A stretch of 24,000 nt of DNA from Lacrimispora algidixylanolytica (GCF_003609635.1 NZ_MCIA01000030.1:166984-190983), one strand, 5' to 3'. Positions 7,764 to 23,819 are shown, numbered from the stretch's first letter. A program made the numbers and translations. The notes: generated from the sequence alone by a model not told the origin.

Positions 7764-7816
7764 AAAACCCCTCCCGGGATACAGCGTATCAGCTGAACCT
7801 GGGAGGGGTTTTTTAT
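7764..7816. terminator. Bidirectional rho-independent terminator shared by fprA (+) and agrB (-)
   Basis: 12-bp perfect stem AAAACCCCTCCC (7764-7775) / GGGAGGGGTTTT (7801-7812), with a T-run on the plus side and TTTTACA on the minus side. The agrB stop codon (7813-7815) abuts the right arm. Confidence 0.75.
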
Positions 7817-8394
7817 GAATTGGATTCTATTATCACAGGATTTATTATCTTTTGCAGTACCAGTAAAAATGCAGCGGCGCAAATTGCCCATCTTATTAAA
7901 CCTCCTACATAAACCAATTGGATGGCATCAAATATCATACTACCGATATTTGCCAGGATTAGGATCTCTCTTGCTTTTTTCCTATAGAATTCTTTCTCTT
8001 TCTCATCCAGTCTCTTATTCTCATTATCAGCCGGACTCATAACATAAATAATTACGTCAGATAAGGCCAATAATCCCCACAACAAGAACTGATTTATTGT
8101 AAAATGAGATAATAAAAGGATTATAAAAATATAACAGCAGGAAAACAGATAACATCCTGTTTTGGTCTTTGCATGATATCCCCCTGCATTTCTTCTTAAT
8201 GGTATCAAAACACTTCCAATTAGAATTAATTCCGGCACCCTTTGCAAACAGACTGCAATCCATAAATATGAAATACAATGAATGATTTTCAGAATCAGAC
8301 ACTCCATTCCAAATTTATAAATTTCAGCATCTTCTTCTGCAATAATATGATAATAGATTAGTCTTCTGGTAAAGGATTCTTCCCATGGTATCAT
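7813..8394 (-). CDS. agrB: AgrB-family membrane endopeptidase (processes the AgrD autoinducer precursor)
   Basis: 193-aa polytopic membrane protein with the AgrB signature LIPLRRNAGGYHAKTKTGCYLFS. His and Cys are 7 residues apart, as for catalytic H77/C84 of S. aureus AgrB. The N-terminal EIYKFGMECLILK region is typical of clostridial AgrB. Confidence 0.85.
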   Translation of the reverse strand: MIPWEESFTRRLIYYHIIAEEDAEIYKFGMECLILKIIHCISYLWIAVCLQRVPELILIGSVLIPLRRNAGGYHAKTKTGCYLFSCCYIFIILLLSHFTINQFLLWGLLALSDVIIYVMSPADNENKRLDEKEKEFYRKKAREILILANIGSMIFDAIQLVYVGGLIRWAICAAAFLLVLQKIINPVIIESNS

Positions 8395-8407
8395 ACGGTA
8401 CTTCGCC

Positions 8408-8554
8408 TTAGAATTTTCTTAATTTCTTTGCATTTTCAGGTAATTTTGGCTGGTATCCAATGAAAAAGCAGGAACTGTTTGCTTCTGTTTTAGCGGAACC
8501 CAAGATGATTTTTGATGCAATTTCCAGTGATAATTTCTTTAATTCATGTTTCAT
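8408..8554 (-). CDS. agrD: AgrD-like autoinducing-peptide precursor (48 aa), absent from the supplied ORF track
   Basis: Hand translation gives MKHELKKLSLEIASKIILGSAKTEANSSCFFIGYQPKLPENAKKLRKF. GGAGG (8567..8563) lies 8 nt upstream of ATG 8554. It has an amphipathic leader, a single Cys followed by four hydrophobic residues (CFFIG), then a YQPKLPE charged tail. It ends 13 nt before agrB. Confidence 0.7.
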   Translation of the reverse strand: MKHELKKLSLEIASKIILGSAKTEANSSCFFIGYQPKLPENAKKLRKF

Positions 8555-8607
8555 TTTAAATGCCTCCATTCTTTTTATTGTTATTAAAAATATATGATTC
8601 GTTCCTT

Positions 8608-8659
8608 GTATTATTCTGATTTACATACAATCTTAAGAATTGGAGCATATATCTTAAAC
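8608..8659 (-). promoter_or_regulatory. Candidate LytTR (AgrA-type) direct repeats plus promoter in front of agrD
   Basis: Minus-strand 9-mers GTTTAAGAT (8659..8651) and TCTTAAGAT (8638..8630) share the core TTAAGAT at exactly 21-bp spacing. The proximal repeat overlaps a -35 TTAAGA (8636..8631); a 17-nt spacer then leads to -10 TAATAC (8613..8608). Confidence 0.4.
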
Positions 8660-9310
8660 TTCCATTACCTTTAGATTTGGTGAAACAATTAGATGTGCTT
8701 CTGTCTGATTCTGGACATCTTCTAGAGTGAATCCTGGAGCAATTTCCTTTAACACAAGTCCCTTATTGGGAACTACATCTATGACTGCCATATCGGTCAC
8801 TATGGTCTTTGCTACTTTTGTGGCGGTCAAGGGAAGTCTGCATCTTCTAAGTATCTTTGGTGCTCCGTTTTTACTTACGTGCTCCATGGCTAAAATCACC
8901 TTTTTTGCTCCCACGACCAGATCCATGGCTCCACCCATACCAGGTACTTTTTTACCCGGAATCATCCAGTTGGCAACGTTTCCCTCTTCATCCACTTCCA
9001 AAGCTCCTAATACCGTAACATCTACGTGTCCGCCCCGTATAAGACTAAAGGAGAATGCGCTGTCAAAGTAACTGGCTCCTTTTACCGTAGTCACATAATT
9101 TCCACCTGCGTCAATACAGTTTAAAGATTCTTCCTCCTGGCTGGCATTGGGTCCCACGCCCATGATTCCATTTTCTGCTTCTAGCATGACATGAACATCT
9201 TCTGGTATGTAGTTAGCCACCATGGTTGGCATACCAATGCCAAGATTGACAACATCACCATCTTTTAATTCCTTTGCGATTCTTTTTGCAATCAATTCTC
9301 TCTTATCCAT
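8654..9310 (-). CDS. ctfB: Acetate/3-oxoacid CoA-transferase subunit B
   Basis: 218 aa. MDKRELIAKRIAKELKDGDVVNLGIGMPT. Catalytic-glutamate ENG motif within LEAENGIMG. Confidence 0.92.
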   Translation of the reverse strand: MDKRELIAKRIAKELKDGDVVNLGIGMPTMVANYIPEDVHVMLEAENGIMGVGPNASQEEESLNCIDAGGNYVTTVKGASYFDSAFSFSLIRGGHVDVTVLGALEVDEEGNVANWMIPGKKVPGMGGAMDLVVGAKKVILAMEHVSKNGAPKILRRCRLPLTATKVAKTIVTDMAVIDVVPNKGLVLKEIAPGFTLEDVQNQTEAHLIVSPNLKVMEV

Positions 9311-9313
9311 ATT

Positions 9314-9970
9314 TTAACCCACCTTTACTATGGCATTAACTAAGACTCCAGGAACATTTACATGATTTGGTTCAATTTCTCCAATTGGTACAATCTCATT
9401 AACCTCAGCAATCACATAGTCCGCAGCCGTTGCCATGACAATATTAAAATTACGGGAAGAACCTCTGATGATCAAGTTACCGGCTTCGTCTGCTTTGTCT
9501 GCCTTAATGAAGGCTACATTTGCTTTTAAAGGCATCTCAAGAAGGTATTCCTTTCCCTGGATTTCAAGTTTTTCCTTGCCTTCTTCCACAATCGTACCAA
9601 GACCAACCGGGGTTAATACCCCTCCAAGACCAGCTCCACCAGAACGTATCTTCTCCGCTAAAGTGCCCTGTGGGAAAAGCTTAACCTCTGCTTCCCCTGA
9701 CATCATAAGTCTTCCGGTTTCTGGATTAGAGCCAATATAGGATGCGAAGATACGTTTGACTCTTCCACTTTTTACAAGCTGAAATATGGATAGATCTTTG
9801 GTACCGGTATCATTTGATATAACGGTTAGGTCTTTGGCTGAATTTGTTTCTAATAACGCATTTACCAGATGCTCCGGGTGACCTCCTGCTAAAAAGCCAC
9901 CTACCATGATTGCATCTCCATCTTTTACTTTTTCTACTGCTTCTTTGGCTGATAACAATTTACTTTTCAT
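9314..9970 (-). CDS. ctfA: Acetate/3-oxoacid CoA-transferase subunit A
   Basis: 218 aa. AKEAVEKVKDGDAIMVGGFLAGGHPEHL is typical of subunit A. It sits 3 nt upstream of subunit B. Confidence 0.92.
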   Translation of the reverse strand: MKSKLLSAKEAVEKVKDGDAIMVGGFLAGGHPEHLVNALLETNSAKDLTVISNDTGTKDLSIFQLVKSGRVKRIFASYIGSNPETGRLMMSGEAEVKLFPQGTLAEKIRSGGAGLGGVLTPVGLGTIVEEGKEKLEIQGKEYLLEMPLKANVAFIKADKADEAGNLIIRGSSRNFNIVMATAADYVIAEVNEIVPIGEIEPNHVNVPGVLVNAIVKVG

Positions 9971-9973
9971 GTC

Positions 9974-10735
9974 TTAGTTCTCCTTTCTATCCTTTAAGTA
10001 ATCATACATTACACTTGCATACGGAAGGGTTAAATCGGCAATGAAATGCCTTCCCTCCACGTAGGATTTAACGGGTAAATCAGCGACTGGCGCGTTGACG
10101 TGAGGAATTAAGTTTAATCTGGCAGGTCCTGACCAGGCCCCTTTTACAGTAATATCTTCCAGGTGATAAGAAACAAGCTGGGCAATGGCAGGGTTTCCGT
10201 CAACATCAGGAATTAATTTCAGATTTACCTGCTTTTTTGCTATGGTTTTTGCTATTTCAGTCTTATCAAGTGTGTTGTATTTAAAGGGCATCGTACCCGT
10301 TGCCACCAAAACGTTATTGTAAATTAACCTGCCGGTCAATGTTTCGGTCTCATCCACCCTCAGTGTAGGGTGGCCCCATTTTTTAGGGAATCCCCAGATT
10401 TCACGGCCTGCTAATATGGCAGGAGCATTATCTAGATACATCTGAGCAACAAAGTTGCACGCTTCTCCATGATAGGTACAGGGAATGACGATCCCGCTTT
10501 CTTCATATGAGCCTAAGCCTGAGGAATCAGGCATTTTAATCCATTCATATGTAACCGTATTGCTTCCGTCTGGCTCTAATGGTTCTGGAACCGCCTCACG
10601 GATTGCGGCTGGATCTGATTTGTAGGTGACAGTAAAAAATTCCCGGTTAATGAAACGGCACGGCGGGCGACCATAGCTGGCACTTGCCGCTGGCATTGAT
10701 TGTAAGGATAAAACATCTTCTGACGTCATAATCAT
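9974..10735 (-). CDS. adc: Acetoacetate decarboxylase
   Basis: Aligns by eye along its whole length with C. acetobutylicum Adc. Matches include GRPPCRF (Arg29 region), GSYEESG (Glu61 region), FPKKWG (catalytic Lys115/116), LKLIPDVDG and YDYLK at the C-terminus. An alternative start at ATG 10729 has better RBS spacing. Confidence 0.9.
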   Translation of the reverse strand: MIMTSEDVLSLQSMPAASASYGRPPCRFINREFFTVTYKSDPAAIREAVPEPLEPDGSNTVTYEWIKMPDSSGLGSYEESGIVIPCTYHGEACNFVAQMYLDNAPAILAGREIWGFPKKWGHPTLRVDETETLTGRLIYNNVLVATGTMPFKYNTLDKTEIAKTIAKKQVNLKLIPDVDGNPAIAQLVSYHLEDITVKGAWSGPARLNLIPHVNAPVADLPVKSYVEGRHFIADLTLPYASVMYDYLKDRKEN

Positions 10736-10759
10736 TTTCCTTTCCCTAAATGAAATCGT

Positions 10760-11944
10760 TTATATGTTAGCGTTTTCAACCAGCATCGCAATGCCCATGC
10801 CTCCGCCGATACATAAGGCAGCAACACCGTAATGTGCGGATCTACGTGTCATTTCATGAATTAAGGTAACCAGTACCCGGGCACCACTTGCCCCTAATGG
10901 ATGCCCTATGGCAATTGCACCGCCATTGACATTTATCTTTGATGAATCGATCCCAAGCTCCCTTGTGGCGGCCACTGCCTGTGCCGCAAAGGCTTCATTT
11001 AATTCAAAAAGATCAATATCATTCACCGATAATCCCTGTTTTTTCAGTAGAGTCGAAACTGCTTTTACGGGGCCCATTCCCATATAAGCAGGATCAACGC
11101 CGACAAGGGAATAGCCCTTGATGAAAGCCGCTGGCTTTAAGCCATGCTCCCTACATGCTTCCTCTGACGCTACTATCATTGCTGCCGCACCATCGCTGAT
11201 AGGGGAAGCATTTCCTGCCGTAACGGTTCCATCCTGTTTGAATACGGTTCTTAAGGTGGAAAGCTTTTCCTTAGACGTATCTGCTCTTACGTGTTCATCC
11301 TCTGTGAAGTGAATTTCTTCTTTTTTCTTTTTGATGATTACAGGAACAATCTGTCCGTCAAAAACCTTATTTTTCTGAGCTTCTGCTGCCCTTCTATTAC
11401 TTTCATAAGAAAATTCATCCTGTTCTTGTCTGGTTACTTTATACTTTTCAGCCACATTTTCCGCAGTAAGTCCCATATGGTAATCATTGATGGCACAGGT
11501 TAGGCCATCACCAATCAGACTATCCACCAGCTCACTGTTTCCAAGTTTGTAGCCTTTTCTTGCATTTCGCAAAAGGTAAGGCGCATTTGTCATACTTTCC
11601 ATACCTCCAGCTAACATAATGCTCCCATCTTCCGCTAAAATGGAATTGTAAGCAAGTGCAACTGCATGAAGGCCTGAGCCACAGAGCGTGTTTAATGTTG
11701 CCGCTGGTACCTCAACTGGTATTCCTGCTTTTATTGCCGCCTGTCTTGCTGGGTTCTGACCATTGCCAGCCTGGAGGACATTTCCCAAATAAACACTATC
11801 AATGAAAGAACTATCTAAATTACTTTGAAGAAGACATGCTTTTATAACGGTTGAACCTAATTCCATGGCACTTACGGGAGAAAGAGTGCCGTTAAAGGTT
11901 CCTACGGCTGTTCTTAAAGGACTTACTAAAGCTACTTTTTTCAT
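10760..11944 (-). CDS. thlA: Acetyl-CoA C-acetyltransferase (thiolase II)
   Basis: 394 aa. Active-site contexts are LNTLCGSGLHAV (nucleophilic Cys), NEAFAAQ, GHPLGASGAR (His) and CIGGGMG (second Cys). Confidence 0.93.
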   Translation of the reverse strand: MKKVALVSPLRTAVGTFNGTLSPVSAMELGSTVIKACLLQSNLDSSFIDSVYLGNVLQAGNGQNPARQAAIKAGIPVEVPAATLNTLCGSGLHAVALAYNSILAEDGSIMLAGGMESMTNAPYLLRNARKGYKLGNSELVDSLIGDGLTCAINDYHMGLTAENVAEKYKVTRQEQDEFSYESNRRAAEAQKNKVFDGQIVPVIIKKKKEEIHFTEDEHVRADTSKEKLSTLRTVFKQDGTVTAGNASPISDGAAAMIVASEEACREHGLKPAAFIKGYSLVGVDPAYMGMGPVKAVSTLLKKQGLSVNDIDLFELNEAFAAQAVAATRELGIDSSKINVNGGAIAIGHPLGASGARVLVTLIHEMTRRSAHYGVAALCIGGGMGIAMLVENANI

Positions 11945-12972
11945 AAATATTCATTCCTTTCATTTATTCGTTTGTCGGTTACCAATCAGAAATTATGATT
12001 TCAAATGTGAGACACGGTTTTATTCATGCGCTGCGTTATGTAGGGTGATTTTTCAAATTTTGAAGGTGCCTGTGGTGGTATCTTTTTGATTGATTCGTCA
12101 TATTATTAGCTCCTTTCTTCTTTCATTTGTATCACAAGGGTATTTTGCTACTCTTATTCTGGTATTTCAATACTGGTTACATAACTTACAGTTTTTGTAG
12201 TATGAGTAACAGAAAAAGGAGCCAATACAAGATTAGCTCCCGAAACTTTTGATTCTGAGTTCTTAACAAAGAATTTGAAACATATATTAAAATTCAGCCT
12301 TCTTTTTTTTAATTCAAAAAGATAACAAGAATAATTATGGCTAAACTATGGTTCAAAGAATTACTCTATTTTAAAAATTTATTGTTATCTTTTTAAGTCA
12401 ACGTCTTGTAAACAACTAGGTCGATACTCTACTTAAAAATATTTAAATATTTAAGATTATATAAGTTAGCAAGAAAAAGAAAAGGAACTTTTATAACATG
12501 CTTTTTTAGTTATTAAACCAATCATTTTAAATACTTTAGGAATAAGAGAAACAAGTTTTGTCCGTTAAACTCTGTCCTTTCATCAAAACTTATTGGTTAA
12601 AAACTGTATTATAAGAATTATTGGCATCAAAACATATGCCATTTTACTTATCATTTAAAATAATTTAATAACAACATTCATATCTTTCGGAAAGGTAGGA
12701 ACCATTGAACGTATCAAATTTAGAGAGATTAATCCATAGAATAACAGAAGTAACAACCGTAGCAGATGTGGGTTTTCATAAAATTGAAAAAGGATATCTA
12801 AATCCTATTTATAAGACATAGACCGAAGTCTTAGGAATGGAACGGTGGTGGAGCAATTGGAGTACAGGTCGAAAGGGCCAGTCGTTATAGAGATTGTTAC
12901 GGATGGCAGTGAACCTGCACCCAATGGAGATCGCTTAAAGGCATTACAAAAACACGATTAAAATATATAGAG

Positions 12973-14283
12973 CTATAAATTAAATATAATTTTACAACTA
13001 AATTTTTTATTTGCTTCTTCTAAAACCATGCTTCCATTATATTTTTTTATAATATTTTCAACATTTAATAAACCGATTCCATGGTTTTTCCCTTTTCTAG
13101 AAACCGGTTTGCCAAAATTCCATTTTTCTATTGGCATGGTACAATTACTAATATTGATGACGATAAATTCATTGTATTTGTCCAGTTTCATGTCAATGTA
13201 TCTGTGATTGGGAACTAGGTCACAGGCTTCGATTGCGTTGTCAAGAAGATTACCAAACACGGTGGTTACTTCAATGGGTTCCATAAAGCCTAGATCTACA
13301 ATACCAATATCCAAGTTAAAACAAATGGAATGAAGACTGGCAATCCTTTTTTTATCATTTAATAACACGTTTAATATTGGATTGTTTGTATAATCCTCCA
13401 AACACAGAGGTACCAACATCTGACCGATTTCCTTTGCATAAGTCTTTGCCATATCATCTTTATTGGCCTCATACAGATTCTCTATCATCTTTAAATGCTT
13501 GTTTACATCATGGAGGATTTTAACGGATTCATTATACTTTTCTCCTTGTTCCTCATAAAATTCATATTGTAGGATGGACTGTTGCTCTAATAGCTTAAGT
13601 TTAATCTTAAGCTGGCTGTTTTCTTCCACGAACCGGGCAAAGTAAGAAAAATAAAGGTCAGCAATTAATATGCAGCCCATGTTAATTAAAATTAGGATAT
13701 GATCAGTCTGACTGTTCACTTTAGAAATAACAAGTAAAATGACTGCCAGATTGGCTATGCTATATAAAATAACAAACAGTTCTATCAGACATTGTGACTT
13801 ATTAAAGGTCCGGTTTAAATCGTCTCTCCAAAGCTTAGCAATGATCTGATAATAGGAAATCAGCACAAACAATTTGGAAAAGGTGATTTCCATACTTTCA
13901 GACACGATTGGATCAACATGAAGTATTTGAAATCGCCATAGGATATAATCTAACAGCTCAACACCAACTGCCTCACATATGGATAAAATTAATATGAGTA
14001 CCGTGATATCAGCAAGCCTATGTATCACTTTTTTATTCATATGATTAAATAAAGTGATGTTCACAAGGCAAGGCAGAATAATCCAGCTTGCTATATTAAT
14101 CACTGGATTATTGAATAAATTAAGAAATACAATTATAATAGGAACTGCTGCTTCTGTAAAGAAATATAGGTATGGATTATGATAGGCCCGCTCATTTCTT
14201 TCTTCCATAAACTGGAATACAATGACGCCGTTAACAAGACATGAAATGATGGAGCCAGATATAAATATAATATAATTTTCCAT
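12973..14283 (-). CDS. AgrC-type (HPK10 family) membrane sensor histidine kinase
   Basis: 436 aa. The N-terminal ~200 aa is polytopic and hydrophobic. H-box ILHDVNKHL. N-box FGNLLDNAIEA. G-box GKNHGIGLLNVENI (GHKL ATPase). It starts 8 nt after the LytTR regulator. Confidence 0.85.
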   Translation of the reverse strand: MENYIIFISGSIISCLVNGVIVFQFMEERNERAYHNPYLYFFTEAAVPIIIVFLNLFNNPVINIASWIILPCLVNITLFNHMNKKVIHRLADITVLILILSICEAVGVELLDYILWRFQILHVDPIVSESMEITFSKLFVLISYYQIIAKLWRDDLNRTFNKSQCLIELFVILYSIANLAVILLVISKVNSQTDHILILINMGCILIADLYFSYFARFVEENSQLKIKLKLLEQQSILQYEFYEEQGEKYNESVKILHDVNKHLKMIENLYEANKDDMAKTYAKEIGQMLVPLCLEDYTNNPILNVLLNDKKRIASLHSICFNLDIGIVDLGFMEPIEVTTVFGNLLDNAIEACDLVPNHRYIDMKLDKYNEFIVINISNCTMPIEKWNFGKPVSRKGKNHGIGLLNVENIIKKYNGSMVLEEANKKFSCKIIFNL

Positions 14284-14291
14284 CTTCTCTC

Positions 14292-15035
14292 CTAAATAGC
14301 ACTTTGTATAAATGTATTTAATTTTTTTCTAAAATCAGCTGATTTTTTTTGTGAAACAGGAATTATATCGTTGTTATTTAAAAACACCTCATAGCCTTTA
14401 ATTTTTTTAACATGTCTTAAATTGATCAAAAAACACTGATGGCATGCTTCAAAGTTATGCATCTGCATTTTCTCTGCCAAATCTTTCATTTTATCTTTAA
14501 AGAAATATTCTTCATTTTCCAATTTTATTTTTATTTTTCGATTAAAGTATTCAAAATAATAGATATCTTTCACTTCAAAATCCTTAATTCTGTTTTCCAG
14601 TTCCCCATCTTGGGTAATTTCTAGTATCTCAAATTTGATTGTTTCATCTTTTTCATGTTCTTCTAGTATGCATTGTAAAATTTCATCAAGCTGTCGATCC
14701 ATCTTATCTTTTGTAATTGGTTTTACTAAATATGCAAATGCGTGCACACGATTGACTGCTTGTTTACAATATTGTTTATAACTGGTGGTGTAAATAACTT
14801 TAGAATTTCGACTGGTTTCCCGAATGATTTTTCCTACCTGGATCCCATTCATTCCGCCTAAGCCGATATCAAGAAATAACAATTCAAAAACCTCTCTGGT
14901 TTCAAGCAACTCTTCTCCTGATTGAAACCGTTTTAACTGATAGGGCATCTCTTTTGGACTCATGTAATCTTTAATCAAAGCTTCAATCTTTGCAGCATCA
15001 CTTTTGTCATCGTCACAAATAGCAATAGAAAGCAT
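14292..15035 (-). CDS. LytTR-family response regulator (AgrA-like)
   Basis: 247 aa. Receiver domain MLSIAICDDD...LLFLDIGLGGMNG. C-terminal LytTR domain FEACHQCFLINLRHVKKIKGYEVFLNNNDIIPVSQKK. Confidence 0.9.
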   Translation of the reverse strand: MLSIAICDDDKSDAAKIEALIKDYMSPKEMPYQLKRFQSGEELLETREVFELLFLDIGLGGMNGIQVGKIIRETSRNSKVIYTTSYKQYCKQAVNRVHAFAYLVKPITKDKMDRQLDEILQCILEEHEKDETIKFEILEITQDGELENRIKDFEVKDIYYFEYFNRKIKIKLENEEYFFKDKMKDLAEKMQMHNFEACHQCFLINLRHVKKIKGYEVFLNNNDIIPVSQKKSADFRKKLNTFIQSAI

Positions 15036-15309: not shown

Positions 15310-16065
15310 TCAAAAACCTTTTACTTCAACTCCCTTTACTGCCAACTCTTCTCTTATTCTCTTTACAAAAGAAAGTGCATTGGCACCATCTCCATGAACG
15401 CAGACCGAATCCGCCGTTATTGATAAATCGGTTCCATCAATCGCCTTTACTCTTCCTTCCCTTGCCATGCGTACGACTTGCATCACAGCCTTTTCTTTCT
15501 CTTCAATTACTGCCCCCTTATTGATTCTTGAAACCAAAGTTCCATCCTTTTCATAAGCTCTGTCTGCAAATACTTCGCTGGCATAGGAAAGCTTACATTC
15601 CATTGCTGCCCGGAGCATCTCACTTCCACTTAAAGCCAAAAGCACCAGACTAGGATCCACATCATGGATTGCCTGGCAGATGGCCTCTGCCAGTCTATAA
15701 TCAGTTGCAGCCATGTTATACAAGGCTCCATGCGGCTTTACATGGTGAAGACGTATGGAGGCACTGTCGCAAAATGCCTTTAATGCTCCGATTTGATAGG
15801 TTACGCAGGCCTTAACTTCTTTTGGAGATAGATTCATATTCCTTCTTCCAAATCCACTAAGATCTGGAAAACCGGGATGAGCCCCTGGCCTTACCCCATG
15901 TACCTTACAAAGAGCTACGGTACGCTCCATAATCAGAGGATCCCCTGCATGAAATCCGCAGGCAATATTTGCCGATGTAATAAGTGGTATGATTTCTTCA
16001 TCCACTCCCATCTTGTATGCCCCAAAGCTTTCTCCTAAATCACAGTTTAAGTCAATGGTTGCCAT
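15310..16065 (-). CDS. pxpA: 5-oxoprolinase subunit A (LamB/YcsF family)
   Basis: 251 aa. IDLNCDLGESFGAYKMG and NIACGFHAGDP motifs. Confidence 0.9.
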   Translation of the reverse strand: MATIDLNCDLGESFGAYKMGVDEEIIPLITSANIACGFHAGDPLIMERTVALCKVHGVRPGAHPGFPDLSGFGRRNMNLSPKEVKACVTYQIGALKAFCDSASIRLHHVKPHGALYNMAATDYRLAEAICQAIHDVDPSLVLLALSGSEMLRAAMECKLSYASEVFADRAYEKDGTLVSRINKGAVIEEKEKAVMQVVRMAREGRVKAIDGTDLSITADSVCVHGDGANALSFVKRIREELAVKGVEVKGF

Positions 16066-16091
16066 ATATAATCTCCTTTCCCTAGAACCCC

Positions 16092-16898
16092 TTAGCTATA
16101 CTTTAAGATCGTGTTTTTAACATCTGTAATAAACATATGGCCGGGAGCGTGGGTCATTGCAAACGATGGCCGGCTGTTCATCAAGACAGCTTGAGGGGTA
16201 ACCCCACACGGCCAAAACACTGGCACTTCCCCCTCTTTTATGGTCACTGGATCCCCGTAATCCGGCTCTTTAATATTTTCTATCCCAATGAATTCTGGAT
16301 ACCCTATATGGATTGGAGCACCGTGTACCTTTGGCATAGCAGCAGTTACTGCAACTGCCATTGGGACTTTACTATGGGGGATCGGTCTCATGCTTACCAC
16401 CATAGTTCCAGAAAAGACTCCTGCTGAAATACAAGGAATGTTTGTGTTGTACATCGGGACATTAACACCTTCCTCAATCTGCCTCACGGGTATGTCTGCC
16501 TCTAAAAGCTCGGCTTCAAAAGAAAAGCTGCATCCGATCAGAAAACTTATGAGCCTGCCTTTTGTTTTCTGGTATTCCTCAAACCGGGAGGATATATTCG
16601 TTGATTCTCCAGTACAGATTCCATTTTCATAGATTCGGTATCTGGGAATGTCTTTTGTAATATCACTGCCTTTAGCGGTCTGAGGAAAGGATCTAGAACC
16701 TGCATCCGATACCTCCAGTAAGGGACAAGCTCTGGGATTTCGTTGGCAGAACAACAGTAAATCCCAAGAAAGTTCTTCTGGTAGAATCACTAAGTTACCC
16801 TGAGCGTAACCGTTACACATTCCGGTAGTCGGACCGTCTATGATCCCGTTTCGTATGAGTTCTCTTACCTGACTTGGCTTACTTTCTGCATAATCCAT
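16092..16898 (-). CDS. DUF1445 putative hydro-lyase (D-glutamate cyclase family; B. subtilis YcsI-like)
   Basis: 268 aa. GMCNGYAQGNLVILPEELSWDLLLFCQRNPRACPLLEV matches the DUF1445 N-terminal signature as I recall it. Confidence 0.8.
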   Translation of the reverse strand: MDYAESKPSQVRELIRNGIIDGPTTGMCNGYAQGNLVILPEELSWDLLLFCQRNPRACPLLEVSDAGSRSFPQTAKGSDITKDIPRYRIYENGICTGESTNISSRFEEYQKTKGRLISFLIGCSFSFEAELLEADIPVRQIEEGVNVPMYNTNIPCISAGVFSGTMVVSMRPIPHSKVPMAVAVTAAMPKVHGAPIHIGYPEFIGIENIKEPDYGDPVTIKEGEVPVFWPCGVTPQAVLMNSRPSFAMTHAPGHMFITDVKNTILKYS

Positions 16899-16937
16899 AA
16901 TTGCCTCCTTTTCTCTTTCCCTTTATTCTGTTGATGA

Positions 16938-17966
16938 TCATTCATCCATTACATCCATGAGCCGTTTCCTAAAATCTTTAAGCTTTTTATCTTCTTTTCG
17001 ATAAATCCCAACTGCCTCCTTAGGTGTTATAAACTGAAACGTGACCCATTCTCCAGGCCGTAACTGGGCCAATGACGGTATGTCTGTGGAGATAACCGTT
17101 CCAATCTTCGCATATCCTCCCGTGGCTTGATGATCCGCCATCATTACCATAGGAAGTCCAGAAGCTGAAATTTGTATGGAACCTTCCACAATTCCATCTG
17201 ATATAATATCAGCTCCTTCTTTTAAACCAATGAGAGGTCCTTCCAGCTTGCATGCCATGCGGTCGCAGCTCATAGATAGTTGATAAGGATTACGAAGAAA
17301 GGTTTTTAATCCTTCCTCTGTAAATGCCTCAGCCTGAGGCCCTTCTACTACTCGTAACAAGACATAACCATGAAGACCATAATAACGGCTGGGTGTGGAC
17401 GGCCTTCTAAGGAAAGACTTATCTTCTCCTAAAGCAAACTTATCTTCTCTCCCTTTTACTATCTCCACAAAAACCTTGACTTGCTCCGTTGTTTTTCCTG
17501 TGGGCAAACAGTCTCCCTGCTTTAAAGCCCTTCCCTTAAACCCTCCCAGTCTGCATTTTAGATTGGTGGAACGGCTTCCCATCACAGCGGGAACCGATAT
17601 TCCCCCATGCACAGCCAGATAAGTCCTAAGACCAGTTGGTGCCAAGGAAAGGGTAAGGACATCTCCCTCCTGCGCGCAAACGGGAGCATACATTGGGATA
17701 GGTTCTCCATTCAGCAGCGGTCGCATATCTGCGCCGGTCAAAGAAAACACTTCAGGAGAGGTGAAACGAATCTCTCCTCCCCTTAAAGTAAATTCCACCA
17801 CTGCTTCCTTGCAATTCTCATCAAAATTTCCAGCCAGTAGATTGGATAGCTTCATGGAGTACTTATCACAGGCTCCACTTTTTTGAAACCCCTGGCTTTG
17901 ATACCCTTCTCTTCCTAGATCTTGTATGGTGGACAATGCTCCGGGTTGTATCATCTCTAATCCCAT
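16938..17966 (-). CDS. pxpC: 5-oxoprolinase subunit C (KipA / allophanate hydrolase subunit 2 family)
   Basis: 342 aa. IQPGALSTIQDLGREGYQ and ATGGYAKIGTVISTDIPSLAQLRPGEWVTF motifs. It starts 1 nt after the pxpB stop. Confidence 0.9.
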   Translation of the reverse strand: MGLEMIQPGALSTIQDLGREGYQSQGFQKSGACDKYSMKLSNLLAGNFDENCKEAVVEFTLRGGEIRFTSPEVFSLTGADMRPLLNGEPIPMYAPVCAQEGDVLTLSLAPTGLRTYLAVHGGISVPAVMGSRSTNLKCRLGGFKGRALKQGDCLPTGKTTEQVKVFVEIVKGREDKFALGEDKSFLRRPSTPSRYYGLHGYVLLRVVEGPQAEAFTEEGLKTFLRNPYQLSMSCDRMACKLEGPLIGLKEGADIISDGIVEGSIQISASGLPMVMMADHQATGGYAKIGTVISTDIPSLAQLRPGEWVTFQFITPKEAVGIYRKEDKKLKDFRKRLMDVMDE

Positions 17967-17967
17967 G

Positions 17968-18657
17968 CTACCACCTCATTTCTGGTGTCTGGCTAATTTC
18001 ATCAAATTCCTTTTGACTTATGGGAACAAATCGAATGGAGTCCCCTGCTTGATATCGCCCTTTTTCTCCCATCTGAGGATCAAAAAGCCGAAGAGGAGTC
18101 CGTCCGATCAGCTGCCAGCCACCGGGAGACTCCATCGGGTAAATTCCAGTCTGTTCTCCTCCAATTCCAACGGATCCAGCTGGAATTTTCGTTCTTGGTA
18201 ATGAAAGTCGAGGGGTTATGATCCGTTCATCCATTCCTCCAAGGTAAGGAAATCCTGGAAGGAACCCAAGCATATAGATGCGGTAATCCCGGCCTGAATG
18301 AATCTCAATGACTTCTTCTTCCTTTAAACCCGAATGCTCTGCCACAAAGGAGAGATCCTTCCCATGGATTCCTCCATAGCAAACGGGGATTCGAACCAAT
18401 GTTCCCGTCTCCTTTTTGCTCTCCCCGCTTGTTTTACAGATATTGATGAGAAACTGGGATACTTCATCGAAATCTATGACCAATGGATCATAATAAACCA
18501 AAAGAGATGCAAAGGCAGGAACTGTTTCTAAAATCCCTTCTCTGGAAGTGGAACGCACTTTCTCGTTTAGTTCCATGACCTTTCGGTTGATTGATTCGCT
18601 GATAGAATCTCCAAGCTCTGCCAACACAGCGCGGTCTCCAACTGCTTTGAGTCTCAT
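17968..18657 (-). CDS. pxpB: 5-oxoprolinase subunit B (KipI / allophanate hydrolase subunit 1 family)
   Basis: 229 aa. MRLKAVGDRAVLAELGD and MLGFLPGFPYLGGMD motifs. ATGA overlap with the upstream DUF4392 gene. Confidence 0.9.
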   Translation of the reverse strand: MRLKAVGDRAVLAELGDSISESINRKVMELNEKVRSTSREGILETVPAFASLLVYYDPLVIDFDEVSQFLINICKTSGESKKETGTLVRIPVCYGGIHGKDLSFVAEHSGLKEEEVIEIHSGRDYRIYMLGFLPGFPYLGGMDERIITPRLSLPRTKIPAGSVGIGGEQTGIYPMESPGGWQLIGRTPLRLFDPQMGEKGRYQAGDSIRFVPISQKEFDEISQTPEMRW

Positions 18658-19736
18658 GACGATTCTCTCCTTTCCCCAAAGAATCCCTTTGCAATCACTG
18701 GGGCAAACCAGTGTTCCGAGTTACAGGAATAACGGACGGCGTAGGCGGTGCACTGGCGCATCAGACTAACGATTCCTGTATTCATCTTCGTATTAAAGCC
18801 GTCAATTCCCGGCAATAAAGAACCTGTCATGTCCACAAGACCGCTTCGTGAGGCGACTCGCATAACCTCTGCCTCCATCTCCTCTCTGTGAAGAATCTCC
18901 ATATCCCGTTTTAAATAAGCAATTGCAGCCATCAAAGCGTAGCAACCCCAATCCGAACAGGTCGCCGTAATAATATAATCGGTGCTGCTTGCGGAAAGAA
19001 TCCCACCTTTGCAACCGCAGGTGCACTCTCCTGGCCCGGTAAATGGTACATATTTCGTAATATGATCGGCAATGGCACCCATGCCGATCTCATTACCCAA
19101 ATCGCCAATGGCAATGCTTAACACACCTGCTGCCCGAAGCATCCCCCACAACACATCACTTTTTGCTTCCAGTTCTGTTACATTTAACCCTGCAGCATTG
19201 TGATAAACTCCAAGTTCGTTCGCTCCCGGTGCTTCCACGGAGATAACGGCTGACGGCATGAATTCCTTCATCAGTAGGTTTCCGTCTTTTTCTGCTTGTT
19301 TTAGATCCTTTGGAAAAGCTACCACTCCCATGCTGTAAGGCAGATTTCTTACTTCCTTTAAATCCTCATATATATGAAGGCCTACCACTCCGGCACACCT
19401 TTTTACCGGTTCTACGCAATCCTCCGGACAAAGTATGACAGGCTTCCCGCCAAATGCCAGGACTAGAGATCTTGCAAAAAGAATGGAGCTAACCATACCA
19501 TCCATTTCCGGCTGCTTATGGGGAAGGAGAACAAATCCAGTGAGGATATAAACCAGATCATCTTTCTTTACAGTGTTACAAAGGCTTTCTGCCGCACTCA
19601 TGGAAAGAGGCTCTCCCATCTTTTCCCGGCTTCCGGCATAGAGGATCCTACAGACACCATACCCCCTGGGATCCAGATTCATTAAGGCATCCAGATTCTC
19701 GCCTACGTTTCTTTTTTCCAGCTCTGCTCTTTCCAT
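18654..19736 (-). CDS. DUF4392 (glutamate-cyclase-associated domain) protein
   Basis: LTGFVLL...PEMDGMVSS and AIGDLGNEIGMG resemble the DUF4392 signatures. I prefer the start at ATG 19736 (MERAELEK...), which has GGGAGGGG upstream. The ORF-track start at 19778 is a TTG without an RBS. Confidence 0.7.
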   Translation of the reverse strand: MERAELEKRNVGENLDALMNLDPRGYGVCRILYAGSREKMGEPLSMSAAESLCNTVKKDDLVYILTGFVLLPHKQPEMDGMVSSILFARSLVLAFGGKPVILCPEDCVEPVKRCAGVVGLHIYEDLKEVRNLPYSMGVVAFPKDLKQAEKDGNLLMKEFMPSAVISVEAPGANELGVYHNAAGLNVTELEAKSDVLWGMLRAAGVLSIAIGDLGNEIGMGAIADHITKYVPFTGPGECTCGCKGGILSASSTDYIITATCSDWGCYALMAAIAYLKRDMEILHREEMEAEVMRVASRSGLVDMTGSLLPGIDGFNTKMNTGIVSLMRQCTAYAVRYSCNSEHWFAPVIAKGFFGERRESS

Positions 19737-19774
19737 AATCCCCTCCCATATCGCACTACTCTGCGTCATATGAA

Positions 19775-20632
19775 TCAATCAAACAGGCTTTTCTTTCCTG
19801 TATAAGCAAGGTATTCTGAGATAACTTCATCCTGGATTAACAATAAGTTCTTTGGATCTTTCCCCCCTACAGGCTTCCCATCAATCTGGTTTGCATGGAG
19901 GCAAAAATTAGATGATGAAGTCACAATAATCTCATCTGCATCCATAAGCTCTGATAAGGTAAATGGGCGCTCTATGACTGGAATGCCAAGTCGGTAGCAA
20001 GCTGATATCATATGAGTCTTTGAAATTCCCCGAAGGATCATAGTGTCATTGGGGTGGGAATAAAAAATTCCATCCTTTAAAATAGAGACATTGCTATGGG
20101 CACATTCTGTCACAATTTCCCCACGGTGGAATATTGTTTCCTCTGCTCCTGCTTCCTTGGCTTTTTGAGAGGCCATAACAGATGGAATCAGATTTAAGGT
20201 CTTTATATTGCAGTGGTAGAATCTTGTGTCCTCTCTGGTGATTAATGAAACGGGAACCTCTGGATCTTTTAACCGATTTGGCCGTATCATGACCCATAAC
20301 TTTCCCAACATATCATCTGCAAACGTATGGTTTCTGGTGCCAGCTCCTCTGGTCACCTGCCAATAAACGAAATGAGTCTCCCCCTCCACCATGGAAAGAA
20401 GCCTTGTTAAAAGTTCTCCAAACTCCTCTTTTTCCATGGGAATCTTAATATCCAGAGCCTTTGCACTGGAATAAAAGCGGTCCAAATGGTCCTGTAAAAG
20501 ATAGACCTTATGGTTTCCTCCTACCGTGGCATCATAAACACCGTCTCCAAAGAAATGGACCCTGTCGTTAAATGGTATGGTTAATTCATCTGGAGTCCCT
20601 ATCGTTCCATCATAGTAAGCAAGTTCTTTCAT
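19775..20632 (-). CDS. dat: D-amino-acid (D-alanine) aminotransferase, fold-type IV PLP enzyme
   Basis: Aligns by eye with Bacillus Dat. Matches include FFGDGVYD, the catalytic Lys context CNIKTLNLI, and ECAHSNVSILKDGIFYSHPNDTMILRGISK. Start ATG 20632 (MKELAYYDG) gives an ATGA overlap with the upstream gene. The track extension to 20701 lies inside that gene. Confidence 0.85.
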   Translation of the reverse strand: MKELAYYDGTIGTPDELTIPFNDRVHFFGDGVYDATVGGNHKVYLLQDHLDRFYSSAKALDIKIPMEKEEFGELLTRLLSMVEGETHFVYWQVTRGAGTRNHTFADDMLGKLWVMIRPNRLKDPEVPVSLITREDTRFYHCNIKTLNLIPSVMASQKAKEAGAEETIFHRGEIVTECAHSNVSILKDGIFYSHPNDTMILRGISKTHMISACYRLGIPVIERPFTLSELMDADEIIVTSSSNFCLHANQIDGKPVGGKDPKNLLLIQDEVISEYLAYTGKKSLFD

Positions 20633-21288
20633 TCTTTCACCTTCTTTTCCGTAATGACACCAAATCTTAATCTTACGTAATCCTCGATTAATTCCACGCA
20701 TTGTTTTAGTCCCAGGCGCTGGGTATTAAGGCACAAGTCATAGTTTTGTGGATTCTTCCACTGTCTACCGGTATGGTAGAGATAGTAGGCGTTTCTGTAT
20801 TTATCTAGTTGATCCACATATTTTCCTGCCTGAGTCCTAGATATCCCCTGACGTTCCATCTCCCGTTCTAATCTAAAATCATAGGGAGCATCGAGAAAAA
20901 CCGATACCACATTTGGCTCATCCTTTAATATAAAGTCAGCTGCTCTGCCAATACACACATAGGATTCCTGTTCTAACAACTCCTTTAATACCTTAGCCTG
21001 ATAATTGAACAAGTTTTGATCCGATAAGAAATTTCCGCTCTCCGGTGGTATGACTTCTCCATTATACACCCTTTTAGAAGCCCGATATAAGAGTGTTTTT
21101 CTTGTTATTTCATCTGCCTCTGCAAATATGGTTTCGTTGATTCCACTGTCCTCGGAAGCAAGCTGCAAAAGCTTTCGGTCATAAAGGTCGATGCCATAAA
21201 AAAAGGCCAGTTCTTTTCCGATTAAACTTCCTCCGCTTCCGCAGGTACGGGTTATGGCCAGTGCAAAATGTCTGCTGCCATCCTTCAT
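20629..21288 (-). CDS. Cytidylate-kinase-like family protein (degenerate P-loop, function unknown)
   Basis: 219 aa. AITRTCGSGGSLIGKELAFFYGIDLYDRKLL is typical of the Cytidylate_kin2-type family, which lacks the Walker-A lysine. Confidence 0.75.
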   Translation of the reverse strand: MKDGSRHFALAITRTCGSGGSLIGKELAFFYGIDLYDRKLLQLASEDSGINETIFAEADEITRKTLLYRASKRVYNGEVIPPESGNFLSDQNLFNYQAKVLKELLEQESYVCIGRAADFILKDEPNVVSVFLDAPYDFRLEREMERQGISRTQAGKYVDQLDKYRNAYYLYHTGRQWKNPQNYDLCLNTQRLGLKQCVELIEDYVRLRFGVITEKKVKE

Positions 21289-21299
21289 CTTTTTTCCTC

Positions 21300-21998
21300 C
21301 TATTGGCCCAGATATGCTTTTTTCACACGCACATCCTTTAATAGCTCACCTGCATTTCCCTCCATGGAAATCTTGCCTGTTTCCATGACATAGGCGCGGT
21401 TTGAAATAGATAATGCCATCTTAGCGTTTTGTTCCACAAGCAGTATGGTGATTCCATTTTGATTCACTTCTTTTATAATGGAGAATATCTCTTTTACCAG
21501 TAGAGGTGACAATCCCATAGAAGGCTCATCCATTAAGATCATCTTTGGCTTTGCCATCAATGCCCGGCCAACGGCAAGCATTTGCTGCTCTCCTCCGGAT
21601 AAGGTGCCGGCAAGCTGTCTTTTTCTTTCTTTGAGTCTGGAAAACCGATTATAAACATCCTCCATAGTGGCTGACATATCCTTTTGATCCGCAAATGCTC
21701 CCATTTCCAAATTCTCTTCCACTGTCATCTGAGGAAATATATGTCTGCCCTCAGGTACATGGGCAAGCTTTAATCGAATGATTTTGCTGGGTTCGGTTTT
21801 CCTAAGGTCGGTTTGCTCAAAGCGAATCTCTCCTTCATCGGCCTTTTTAAGCCCTGAAATCGTTCTTAAGATTGTGGTTTTCCCGGCACCATTGGCACCG
21901 ATTAACGATACAATTTCACCACGATTCACCTTTAGAGAAACGTTATGAATGGCATGAATGGCTCCGTAGGATACGGACAAGTTGCTAATCTCAAGCAT
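21300..21998 (-). CDS. livF: Branched-chain-amino-acid-type ABC transporter ATP-binding protein LivF
   Basis: Walker A GANGAGKTT, signature LSGGEQQ, Walker B ILMDEPS. Start ATG 21998 (MLEISNLSV) has GAGGAGGTG 7 nt upstream. 8-nt overlap with livG. Confidence 0.9.
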   Translation of the reverse strand: MLEISNLSVSYGAIHAIHNVSLKVNRGEIVSLIGANGAGKTTILRTISGLKKADEGEIRFEQTDLRKTEPSKIIRLKLAHVPEGRHIFPQMTVEENLEMGAFADQKDMSATMEDVYNRFSRLKERKRQLAGTLSGGEQQMLAVGRALMAKPKMILMDEPSMGLSPLLVKEIFSIIKEVNQNGITILLVEQNAKMALSISNRAYVMETGKISMEGNAGELLKDVRVKKAYLGQ

Positions 21999-22797
21999 CT
22001 TCTTCCACCTCCTCATCCTCTTTTCCAAGATATGCTTCTATGACTCTCTGGTTGTTTGCAATTTCCTTTGGAGTGCCAAACGCTATGGTCGTTCCAAAAT
22101 CCAACACTTTAATCCGTTCGCAAATCTTCATGACAAGACTCATATCATGCTCAATGAGAAGAACGGAGATCTTAAACTCTTTTCGAATATAGTTGATAAT
22201 ATCTAATAGCTCCTCCGTCTCCGTAGGATTCATGCCTGCTGCCGGTTCATCAAGTAAAAGAAGCTTCATATCTGTTGCCAGTGCCCTGGCAATTTCCAGC
22301 CTTCTTTGTTCTCCGTAAGGAAGATTTCCTGCTTTTAACTCCTCCTTGCCTTCTAAGTGAACCACCTTTAAAAGCTCCTTTGCCCGCTCTGTCAATAATG
22401 CCTCTTGTTTCCAATACTTTGGAGTGCGAAAAACAGCATGAAAGAAGCCATAGGAAAGTCTGGAATTCATGGCGGCTTTTATATTATCAATTACCGACAT
22501 TTTCTTGAATAACCGGATATTTTGAAATGTTCTTGCAATTCCCGCTTCAACAATCTGGTAGGTGTTCTTTCCATTCATTCGCTGGCCATTTAGGTAAAAA
22601 GAGCCTTCGGTTGGTTTGTATACCCCAGTAATTAAATTAAATACTGTGGTTTTCCCAGCTCCGTTTGGCCCAATAAGACCGATTAACTCAGATTCTCCAA
22701 TTTCCAGATCAAAGCTGTCTACTGCTTTTAATCCACCAAACTGAATCCCAAGATTTTGAACCATTAACACCGGGGGCTTTTTTGCCGCTTCTTTCAT
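21991..22797 (-). CDS. livG: Branched-chain-amino-acid-type ABC transporter ATP-binding protein LivG
   Basis: 268 aa. Walker A GPNGAGKTT, LPYGEQRRLEIARAL signature, LLLDEPAAG. Confidence 0.9.
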   Translation of the reverse strand: MKEAAKKPPVLMVQNLGIQFGGLKAVDSFDLEIGESELIGLIGPNGAGKTTVFNLITGVYKPTEGSFYLNGQRMNGKNTYQIVEAGIARTFQNIRLFKKMSVIDNIKAAMNSRLSYGFFHAVFRTPKYWKQEALLTERAKELLKVVHLEGKEELKAGNLPYGEQRRLEIARALATDMKLLLLDEPAAGMNPTETEELLDIINYIRKEFKISVLLIEHDMSLVMKICERIKVLDFGTTIAFGTPKEIANNQRVIEAYLGKEDEEVEEDA

Positions 22798-22799
22798 TG

Positions 22800-23819
22800 T
22801 TACACACCTCCTTTTGTTTTCTCATTCCTGGAATCCTTTTTGCCACCTTCTTGCCTTGTAAGCTTTTTTATCAGGCGAGTGAGGGAAAACTCCCAGTTTC
22901 CAAAAATCCCTCCTGGTCGAAAGATCATTACCATTACTAGGATTATGGAATATACCAGCATCCGGTATTTGGAGAACTGACGGGTCATTTCCGGCAGAGA
23001 GGATAAGAATGCAGCTCCAAGAATAGAGCCGGTTAAAGATCCAGTTCCTCCGATGATAACTTCAGAAAGCAGTTCCGCAGAATACATAAAGTTAAAGTTC
23101 GTTGGGATCATGGCGGTCATATAATGAGCGTAAATTCCACCTCCCACTCCTGCAAAAAAAGCAGCCACGGTAAAGGTCATTACTTTATAATATGTCACAT
23201 TAATTCCAGAGGCCGCTGCTGCGATGTAATCCTCCCGTATGGCCTTTACGGTCCTTCCAAACCGGCTTCTCACATACATGTACATGACTGCGACGCAAGC
23301 AGCCATGATCCAATAACACCAGTAGAAATCTGACAATTTTAATATCCCACTCATGGTCTTTCCTCCCCCGGTAATAGGGAAGTTGCAAAAACAGACCCTT
23401 ATAATTTCAGCAAATGCCACGGTAACAATGGCTAAGTAATCTCCTTTTAAGCGAAGAGCCGGTATGCCAACCATAACTCCTGTGATTCCAGCCATAGCCC
23501 CTCCAGCCATTAAGGCCGTGAGAAACAAAAAGAAATCCGGCAGCCCCTTTCCAGCCAAAGCACTGGATACAATGGCAGAGGTATATGCTCCCACAGATAC
23601 AAAACCTGCATGCCCCAGGGAGAATTCACCCATAAACCCTACCACAAGATTTAAAGATGCTACCATTATAATTGTATAACAAGCTGTCGTGCATATTCCC
23701 TTTATGTACTGAGTGGATGGCCCAAATACCTTGGTTTCAAAGAGAAGGACGAATAAAAGAAATACAGCTATCACGCCCAGGATGTTAATCAAATAAGAAA
23801 TCTTATACTTTTTTTCCAT
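22800..23819 (-). CDS. livM: Branched-chain-amino-acid-type ABC transporter permease LivM
   Basis: 339-aa polytopic membrane protein. GEFSLGHAGFVSVGAYTSA is typical of LivM. It sits directly upstream of livG. Confidence 0.88.
   Translation of the reverse strand: MEKKYKISYLINILGVIAVFLLFVLLFETKVFGPSTQYIKGICTTACYTIIMVASLNLVVGFMGEFSLGHAGFVSVGAYTSAIVSSALAGKGLPDFFLFLTALMAGGAMAGITGVMVGIPALRLKGDYLAIVTVAFAEIIRVCFCNFPITGGGKTMSGILKLSDFYWCYWIMAACVAVMYMYVRSRFGRTVKAIREDYIAAAASGINVTYYKVMTFTVAAFFAGVGGGIYAHYMTAMIPTNFNFMYSAELLSEVIIGGTGSLTGSILGAAFLSSLPEMTRQFSKYRMLVYSIILVMVMIFRPGGIFGNWEFSLTRLIKKLTRQEGGKKDSRNEKTKGGV

Follow-up and report, generated by a model that had tools for sequence, protein, structure and literature searches.

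The ATP-dependent 5-oxoprolinase of bacteria, PxpABC (KipOIA), can support growth on pyroglutamate in Clostridioides difficile and Corynebacterium glutamicum. Its LamB/YcsF, KipI and KipA subunits are encoded in clusters in Bacillus subtilis (ycsF-kipI-kipA), Escherichia coli (ybgJKL), C. difficile (kipOTIA) and C. glutamicum (pxpTABC). In C. difficile and C. glutamicum these genes are joined to an uptake system, a carrier of the NRAMP/APC type, and there is no DUF1445 gene; B. subtilis has a DUF1445 gene (ycsI, now pxpI) in the operon, without DUF4392 and without dat. In mouse, DUF1445 and DUF4392 form a single protein, 9030617O03Rik (DGLUCY), which turns D-glutamate into 5-oxo-D-proline; hearts of knock-out animals accumulate D-glutamate (PMC5339696).

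Here we analyze a stretch of 24,000 nucleotides from Lacrimispora algidixylanolytica (NZ_MCIA01000030.1:166984-190983; hereafter the window), whose minus strand carries an operon of the Pxp kind. The original prediction for this locus, made from the sequence alone, described six coupled genes reading dat, DUF4392, pxpB, pxpC, DUF1445, pxpA, and added that ycsI has no assigned role in B. subtilis, as the literature also indicates. We scored the window's proteins against Pfam and NCBIfam models. All six open reading frames (ORFs) were recovered where they had been placed, with strong matches to the proposed families, and the proposed order and spacing were correct (Table 1). DUF4392 and pxpB share a 4-nt ATGA overlap, and pxpB and pxpC are 1 nt apart. 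The remaining gaps are 39 nt (pxpC/DUF1445), 26 nt (DUF1445/pxpA) and 38 nt (dat/DUF4392), the last taking the ATG at 19736, just after a GGGAGG, as the most plausible DUF4392 start.

While the kind of operon is known, its extension by a split D-glutamate cyclase pair and a D-amino-acid module is new. Compared to the described PxpABC operons, the block found here always adds DUF4392 and DUF1445 and usually dat, and its transporter is a five-component Liv-type ATP-binding cassette (ABC) importer. With a probability of about 0.5, we propose that the operon handles the lactam of glutamate (5-oxoproline, pyroglutamate), including its D-enantiomer, and would feed the product to central metabolism.

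Conservation and architectures of the gene set

We scanned one genome per species for DUF4392 relatives with the motif GDLGNE[ILM]G[ML], which returned 557 species. The 80 closest loci (59-98% identity) were annotated using the window's proteins as labels, and denominators for this set are the loci with enough sequence. The nearest relatives are Lacrimispora (Lachnospiraceae), with 98% protein identity in DUF4392. Among these 80 loci, pxpB-pxpC-DUF1445-pxpA follows right behind DUF4392 in unchanged order in 65 of 68. The three exceptions are single-gene lesions. In a human-gut isolate genome (MGYG-HGUT-00145, locus L027), DUF1445 is cut down to a C-terminal remnant at ~12785-12898 and the rest of the operon is intact. 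In one metagenome-assembled genome pxpC is deleted from an otherwise intact operon (L044, ~11772-11879), and in another it is frameshifted (L043, 4306-5258).

The genes outside this core are less constant. A Liv-type importer occurs in 57 of 69 loci. The original prediction made dat a member of the operon, and dat does usually lie immediately upstream of DUF4392 (66/77), but it is accessory: roughly 11 of the 80 loci consist of the five-gene core alone, with neither dat nor importer. In one such core-only locus of high G+C (L039, 8044-9360), a gene for an M18 (aspartyl/glutamyl) aminopeptidase of ~438 amino acids lies directly upstream, and three other loci of this kind (L048, L057, L181) have an ORF of the same size at that position, a match of size only.

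The genes around the block vary by lineage, so the block behaves as a module. Within the core, DUF4392 and DUF1445 are the best conserved proteins (median identity 73% and 72%, compared to 65% for PxpA, 60% for PxpB and 50% for PxpC), indicating that both are under selection and are not passengers.

Profile searches reached a different arrangement in Clostridium sensu stricto. In Clostridium beijerinckii and Clostridium tyrobutyricum the genes run AsnC/Lrp regulator, dat, DUF4392, DUF1445, pxpA, alanine racemase (alr), pxpB, pxpC, biotin carboxyl carrier protein (BCCP) and biotin carboxylase. The DUF4392 and DUF1445 genes are adjacent here, yet still separate. The importer before the block is Liv-type in C. 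beijerinckii, and in C. tyrobutyricum it is MetQ-type and is accompanied by a GlcD-like FAD oxidase. A metagenome scan seeded with the Clostridium-type proteins gave, among its best 80 loci (many from assemblies labelled human gut), numerous examples of a third form, dat-DUF4392-pxpB-pxpC-DUF1445-pxpA-alr, which we call architecture B. The full core is found in 43 of 46 metagenome loci, dat adjoins DUF4392 in 56 of 68, and alr comes right after pxpA in 38 of 44. No adjacent transporter and no nearby regulator was seen in the two architecture B loci that we inspected, and the neighbours of these two loci are unrelated.

Taken over four arrangements, the recurrent set is a five-gene core, usually with Dat, often with Alr, and with variable importers and regulators; in relatives, the block is bordered by regulators of the AsnC/Lrp type and by amino-acid importers of various kinds. 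The original prediction had named confinement of the linkage to this lineage as evidence against it, and the same gene set is instead found across many species. Chance clustering of the core was rejected on the conservation counts (65/68 species loci, 43/46 metagenome loci) together with the unrelated flanks. The set is also abundant in gut metagenomes, with thousands of member sequences in single protein clusters.

Distant family members were sampled through plasmid records, 260 of which carry DUF1445. In four of six sampled contexts (Klebsiella, Lactiplantibacillus, Bacillus badius and Paracoccus) DUF1445 is flanked on one or both sides by pxpA and KipI/KipA genes, with an NRAMP transporter also present; the remaining two show it on its own. 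DUF4392 and dat never occur in these four contexts, and three of them also hold BCCP and biotin carboxylase. In loci of Clostridium, Klebsiella, Lactiplantibacillus and Paracoccus (L098, 12950-16503; L099, 12815-16333; L094, 7790-11118; L095, 3480-6990; L103, 6762-10055), BCCP and biotin carboxylase come after KipI/KipA as separate genes or are fused to them. By analogy, their association with PxpA and DUF1445 looks like a biotin-dependent lactam system built in the manner of a split urea carboxylase.

Distant DUF4392 proteins (24-33% identity, named 'glutamate cyclase domain-containing' by NCBI) are found in other amino-acid-like clusters. Their neighbours are Asp/Glu-racemase-family 'arylmalonate decarboxylase' genes, SelA-like or class V pyridoxal phosphate (PLP) enzymes and a Thr/Ser dehydratase (L096, 6153-8038; L106, 1512-7047), and in two loci (L097 and L105) two DUF4392 genes flank a SelA-like gene. 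These clusters might reveal the general chemistry of the family. On the Sinorhizobium meliloti plasmid pRM41A, DUF1445 and DUF4392 are 3.6 kb apart. The tie of DUF1445 to Pxp is therefore general, while that of DUF4392 to Pxp is specific to the Clostridia clade.

Conserved residues in the cyclase homologues, Dat and Pxp subunits

For the DUF1445 protein, the PF07286 match covers model positions 1-143 of 143. It also matches the structural-genomics entries 2pif and 3db9 with E about 1e-81 (3db9, 5e-81), and 3db9 has been named as homologous to the human C14orf159 N-terminal domain (PMC5132392). The DUF4392 protein matches TON_0340 of Thermococcus onnurineus (PDB 4dwz) across the catalytic half (E 1e-17). 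Six of its acidic residues, E77, D79, E168, D212, E216 and D312, are unchanged throughout 25 diverse long-form DUF4392 homologues (27-49% identity) and align with the TON_0340 metal ligands E59, D61, E115, D157, E161 and D246, from which we predict a two-metal acidic site.

The long form differs from TON_0340, a stand-alone protein of 268 amino acids, in two respects. The segment between the first two ligand regions is ~34 amino acids longer, and there is a CxCxC insertion (C238, C240 and C242; ~19011-19025) that is absent from TON_0340 and nearly invariant in long-form DUF4392 down to 27% identity. This motif might form an additional site for a metal or for redox chemistry.

The original prediction compared these genes with mammalian D-glutamate cyclase as a DUF4392-DUF1445 fusion. 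The fusion is real, but the order is reversed: DUF1445 is N-terminal and DUF4392 C-terminal (PMC5339696, PMC5132392). As in the mammalian protein (DGLUCY, C14orf159, 9030617O03Rik), PF07286 and PF14336 are both present here at full length, and the metal ligands of the C-terminal family are kept. In contrast to it, the two domains are not in one polypeptide here; pxpB and pxpC separate their genes, and DUF4392 is of the long form with CxCxC. Furthermore, the bacterial halves are co-encoded with an ATP-dependent oxoprolinase, a link that mammals do not make.

Dat matches the Bacillus D-amino-acid transaminase (DAAT) 3daa with E 1e-49 (phmmer). The catalytic residues K145 and E177 of Bacillus DAAT and its alpha-carboxylate trap Y31, R98 and H100 are all identical in Dat. 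TIGR01121 is its best-scoring NCBIfam model, and the BCAT and ADCL models score far lower. The dat gene adjoins DUF4392 in three different architectures, and in two a true alanine racemase lies within or after the block (TIGR00492, 382 bits against a cutoff of 168). These results strengthen the D-amino-acid link that had been proposed from the window. Alr and Dat together are the known biosynthetic route to D-glutamate in Bacillus. The present system is like that route in having a fold IV enzyme with the same five residues and, in relatives, a co-encoded alr. It differs in that Dat scores below its equivalog cutoff, the context is an oxoprolinase operon instead of a cell-wall one, and the window's operon has no alr.

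Among the Pxp subunits, PxpA passes the NCBIfam PxpA subfamily model and PxpB the PxpB equivalog model. PxpC falls below the stricter equivalog NF045499 (228 bits, cutoff 500).

Proposed function and rival explanations

As oxoprolinase, Dat, alanine racemase and the two halves of the cyclase, the only known enzyme that interconverts 5-oxo-D-proline and D-glutamate, all meet at one metabolite pair, we infer that the operon handles the D- as well as the L-enantiomer. Gene content, order, coupling and conservation, including that of catalytic residues, come straight from the sequences; substrates, direction of flux and physical coupling of the proteins are proposed on that basis. The Liv-type importer would take up pyroglutamate and/or D-glutamate. 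The five-protein core would interconvert 5-oxoproline and glutamate, with PxpABC contributing the ATP-driven ring opening known for its family and DUF1445 and DUF4392, by homology and context, presumably supplying the chemistry that links D-glutamate to 5-oxo-D-proline. Dat would then move the amino group of D-glutamate to pyruvate, giving 2-oxoglutarate and D-alanine, and in related operons the co-encoded alanine racemase may convert D-alanine to L-alanine. The purpose would be that presumed for the known catabolism of D-glutamate (MurI racemase, D-amino-acid dehydrogenase, and N-acetylation and racemisation by DgcN/DgcA), namely to bring its carbon and nitrogen into central metabolism. No protein family except Dat is shared with those routes.

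How the D-branch would be driven depends on the energetics. PMC13274462, citing Nishimura 1999, gives an uncatalysed equilibrium [L-Glu]/[5-oxoproline] of ~0.035, which favours the lactam ~29:1, and by symmetry the same should apply to the D pair. The original prediction had proposed a route for both enantiomers, in which 5-oxo-D-proline would reach D-glutamate through DUF4392/DUF1445, and then Dat, separately from PxpABC. We retain the D-branch, on which Dat, Alr, the cyclase homologues and the oxoprolinase converge, but an ATP-free form of it would run against the equilibrium. As a rival explanation, two such independent routes, with PxpABC and ATP acting on 5-oxo-L-proline, DUF1445/DUF4392 acting on 5-oxo-D-proline with neither ATP nor Pxp contact and Dat removing D-glutamate, appear fairly unlikely. 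The mammalian enzyme needs no ATP and its reaction is reversible in principle, Dat (plus Alr in relatives) could pull D-glutamate away, the importer could concentrate the lactam, and an ATP-independent 5-oxoprolinase is known from Alcaligenes. However, reversal of the cyclase would demand lactam at ~29-fold over D-glutamate while cells must keep D-glutamate for their walls, and parallel routes leave unexplained both the invariant interleaving of the five genes and the DUF1445 genes in pxp operons without DUF4392 and dat (Bacillus, Lactiplantibacillus, Klebsiella, Paracoccus), which fit a tie to Pxp better. Given the 29:1 equilibrium, the invariant five-gene block and the presence of DUF1445 among the pxp genes of other phyla, we rate a D-branch coupled to the energy-dependent step of PxpB/PxpC as no less likely than a pair of parallel routes. 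With the lactam so strongly favoured, it is more probable than not that the D-lactam is opened through this step and not by free reversal of the cyclase. In one tentative form of this coupling, possible but with the odds against it, the five core proteins would be a single stereo-divergent, ATP-driven lactam-opening machine, with PxpB/PxpC as a shared activating module (biotin-dependent in Clostridium), PxpA as the L-lactam hydrolase and DUF1445/DUF4392 as the D-lactam hydrolase. If so, bacteria could open 5-oxo-D-proline against the 29:1 equilibrium, and the animal D-glutamate cyclase would be the same pair, fused and severed from its activating module, hence running downhill in reverse.

Other explanations change the purpose or the substrate. 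An operon for D-glutamate homeostasis or metabolite repair, in which Alr and Dat make D-glutamate for peptidoglycan and the core recycles lactams formed spontaneously from the L- and D-glutamate pools, would fit the established role of Alr and Dat in Bacillus, the recognition of PxpABC as a repair enzyme for 5-oxoproline, and architecture B (dat-core-alr), with no transporter or regulator nearby. We consider it unlikely, as the window's version and 57 of 69 relatives are joined to an ABC importer and in Clostridium an AsnC/Lrp regulator and importers are added, as is typical of catabolic operons. A different substrate, such as a six-membered or substituted lactam or a D-amino acid, with the Pxp-like proteins as a general lactamase that depends on ATP or biotin and whose product DUF1445/DUF4392 would act on, seems quite unlikely. 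LamB/YcsF is a lactam-utilisation family, KipI/KipA occur with BCCP and biotin carboxylase in a split-urea-carboxylase-like manner in Clostridium, Lactiplantibacillus, Klebsiella and Paracoccus, other PLP enzymes are the partners of distant DUF4392 proteins, and both PxpC and Dat lie under their equivalog cutoffs; but PxpA and PxpB pass their own models, cyclisation of D-glutamate is the only activity ever shown for a protein with DUF1445 and DUF4392, and the nearest solved relatives of Dat are D-alanine/D-glutamate transaminases. Disposal of D-glutamate as in mammals, with Dat funnelling D-amino nitrogen to D-glutamate and the cyclase yielding 5-oxo-D-proline for excretion, is highly improbable: it is thermodynamically downhill and is the physiological direction in mouse heart, but it would drain D-glutamate needed by the wall and does not explain why the genes are obligatorily linked to an ATP-dependent oxoprolinase and to an importer.

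Several observations weigh against our proposal that the operon processes both enantiomers of the glutamate lactam. The insertion and CxCxC of long-form DUF4392 mean that the mammalian activity need not be shared, and TON_0340 was described as a phosphatase of weak, Mn-dependent activity, its true substrate being some small molecule not yet identified (PMC5132392). The distant proteobacterial DUF4392 clusters that we sampled carry no pxp genes. Dat reaches 214 bits on TIGR01121, under the equivalog cutoff of 277. As Dat and Alr are also the classical pair for D-glutamate biosynthesis, the flux may serve either catabolism of imported lactam or D-glutamate or the upkeep and repair of the D-glutamate pool, and core-only loci and the transporter-less architecture B mean that uptake-based catabolism cannot account for everything. 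Finally, a literature search found no experimental work on bacterial D-glutamate cyclase, DUF1445, DUF4392, ycsI/pxpI or 5-oxo-D-proline, in line with the earlier statement that the bacterial role of both families is not experimentally settled. The only prior notice that we found is a table entry in a 2024 preprint, which lists 6 'split' gut homologues of GLUCM_HUMAN without comment (PMC11580864). A curated catalogue of D-amino-acid genes from 2025 contains MurI, Dat, dehydrogenases and DgcN, and no prokaryotic D-glutamate cyclase (PMC12363236).

Bacteria widely encode DUF1445 (UPF0317) and DUF4392; structures have been solved for both families, and the names they now bear were taken over from a single mouse study. 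This operon of gut and soil Clostridia and its three sister architectures set both among a D-amino-acid transaminase, alanine racemase and ATP-dependent oxoprolinase in hundreds of species, including the abundant gut genera Faecalibacterium, Gemmiger, Subdoligranulum, Lacrimispora and Clostridium. The gene set makes the bacterial role of both families directly approachable by a simple in vitro experiment. If our proposal is true, it would add a new entry to the few D-glutamate pathways listed for bacteria, explain the ycsI-type genes inside pxp operons, and tie microbial metabolism to 5-oxo-D-proline, which humans make from microbial D-glutamate and excrete.

Extent of the transcription unit and its flanks

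The original prediction had a six-gene operon starting at 20632. The dat ATG at this position overlaps the stop of a Cytidylate_kin2-like gene by ATGA, so the unit reaches upstream beyond dat. That gene is separated from livF by 11 nt, livF and livG overlap, and livG and livM are 2 nt apart; ORF calls give ten tightly spaced minus-strand genes from 15310 to 23819 (Table 1). For livF, we took the ATG at 21998, which is preceded by GGAGG, as the start; the longest ORF begins at 22028. Contigs with an identical livM protein (L001, L002 and L004) continue upstream with livH and then a Peripla_BP_6 binding protein, both of which lie past the window edge. In order of transcription, the unit is thus made up of 12 genes: binding protein-livH-livM-livG-livF-kinase-like-dat-DUF4392-pxpB-pxpC-DUF1445-pxpA. 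The Liv-type (HAAT) importer set is complete, with two BPD_transp_2 permeases, LivG with a BCA_ABC_TP_C tail, LivF and the Peripla_BP_6 protein, whose closest solved relatives bind branched-chain or aromatic amino acids.

Table 1. Genes of the minus-strand unit that lie within the window, in order of transcription, with their best model matches
Gene	Coordinates	Strand	Evidence
livM-type ABC permease	22800..23819	minus	PF02653 (BPD_transp_2) 126 bits
livG-type ABC ATPase	21991..22797	minus	ABC_tran + BCA_ABC_TP_C tail; LivG model 308 bits
livF-type ABC ATPase	21300..21998	minus	ABC_tran 123 bits; LivF model 279 bits
Cytidylate_kin2-like putative kinase	20629..21288	minus	PF13189 170 bits; PDB 3hdt 'putative kinase' E 7e-38
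dat, fold IV D-amino-acid transaminase	19775..20632	minus	PF01063 (Aminotran_4) 131 bits; top NCBIfam model TIGR01121 214 bits
long-form DUF4392 (GLUCM-like_C)	18654..19736	minus	PF14336 273 bits, model positions 1-291 of 291
pxpB (KipI-type)	17968..18657	minus	CT_C_D 265 bits; TIGR00370 223 bits, cutoff 146
pxpC (KipA-type)	16938..17966	minus	CT_A_B 275 bits; TIGR00724 271 bits, cutoff 230
DUF1445 / UPF0317 'putative hydro-lyase' (D-Glu_cyclase)	16092..16898	minus	PF07286 229 bits; NF003969 382 bits, cutoff 324
pxpA (LamB/YcsF), last gene of unit	15310..16065	minus	PF03746 353 bits; NF003814 368 bits, cutoff 226

A consensus scan inside the operon found promoter and terminator signals at shuffle background (14 compared to 16.6 expected, and 8 compared to 9.2, respectively). 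Rfam models gave no riboswitch or leader for the operon in the window or in the extended locus L014. It should be noted that L014 has a fluoride riboswitch (RF01734, 38.7 bits; 3198-3270, minus) outside the window, which precedes a CLC-type channel gene upstream of the binding-protein gene.

The Cytidylate_kin2-like gene is accessory, being present in 53 of 69 loci and absent from L004, L019, L032, L033, L042 and L079. Translational coupling ties it to the Liv-type importer's end. Locus L011 has two copies (8476-9126 and 18234-18839), and the second is the last gene of an unrelated ABC operon for polar amino acids. These placements suggest that the gene's role is linked to transporters.

Downstream of pxpA, a 274-nt AT-rich spacer is followed by genes for a LytTR regulator and a histidine kinase. 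We rejected this pair as a regulator of the operon and kept it outside the unit, since only the closest relatives (L014-L017, L019, L032 and L042) have it along with the operon and it belongs to an agr-like quorum-sensing set. That set spans positions 7813-15035 of the window, with AgrB at 7813-8394, the AgrC-like kinase at 12973-14283 and the LytTR regulator at 14292-15035. It brackets a cluster of thiolase, acetoacetate decarboxylase and CoA-transferase A/B genes (8654-11944), and the segment from 12000 to 15000 has a G+C content of ~30%, compared to ~43% around it.

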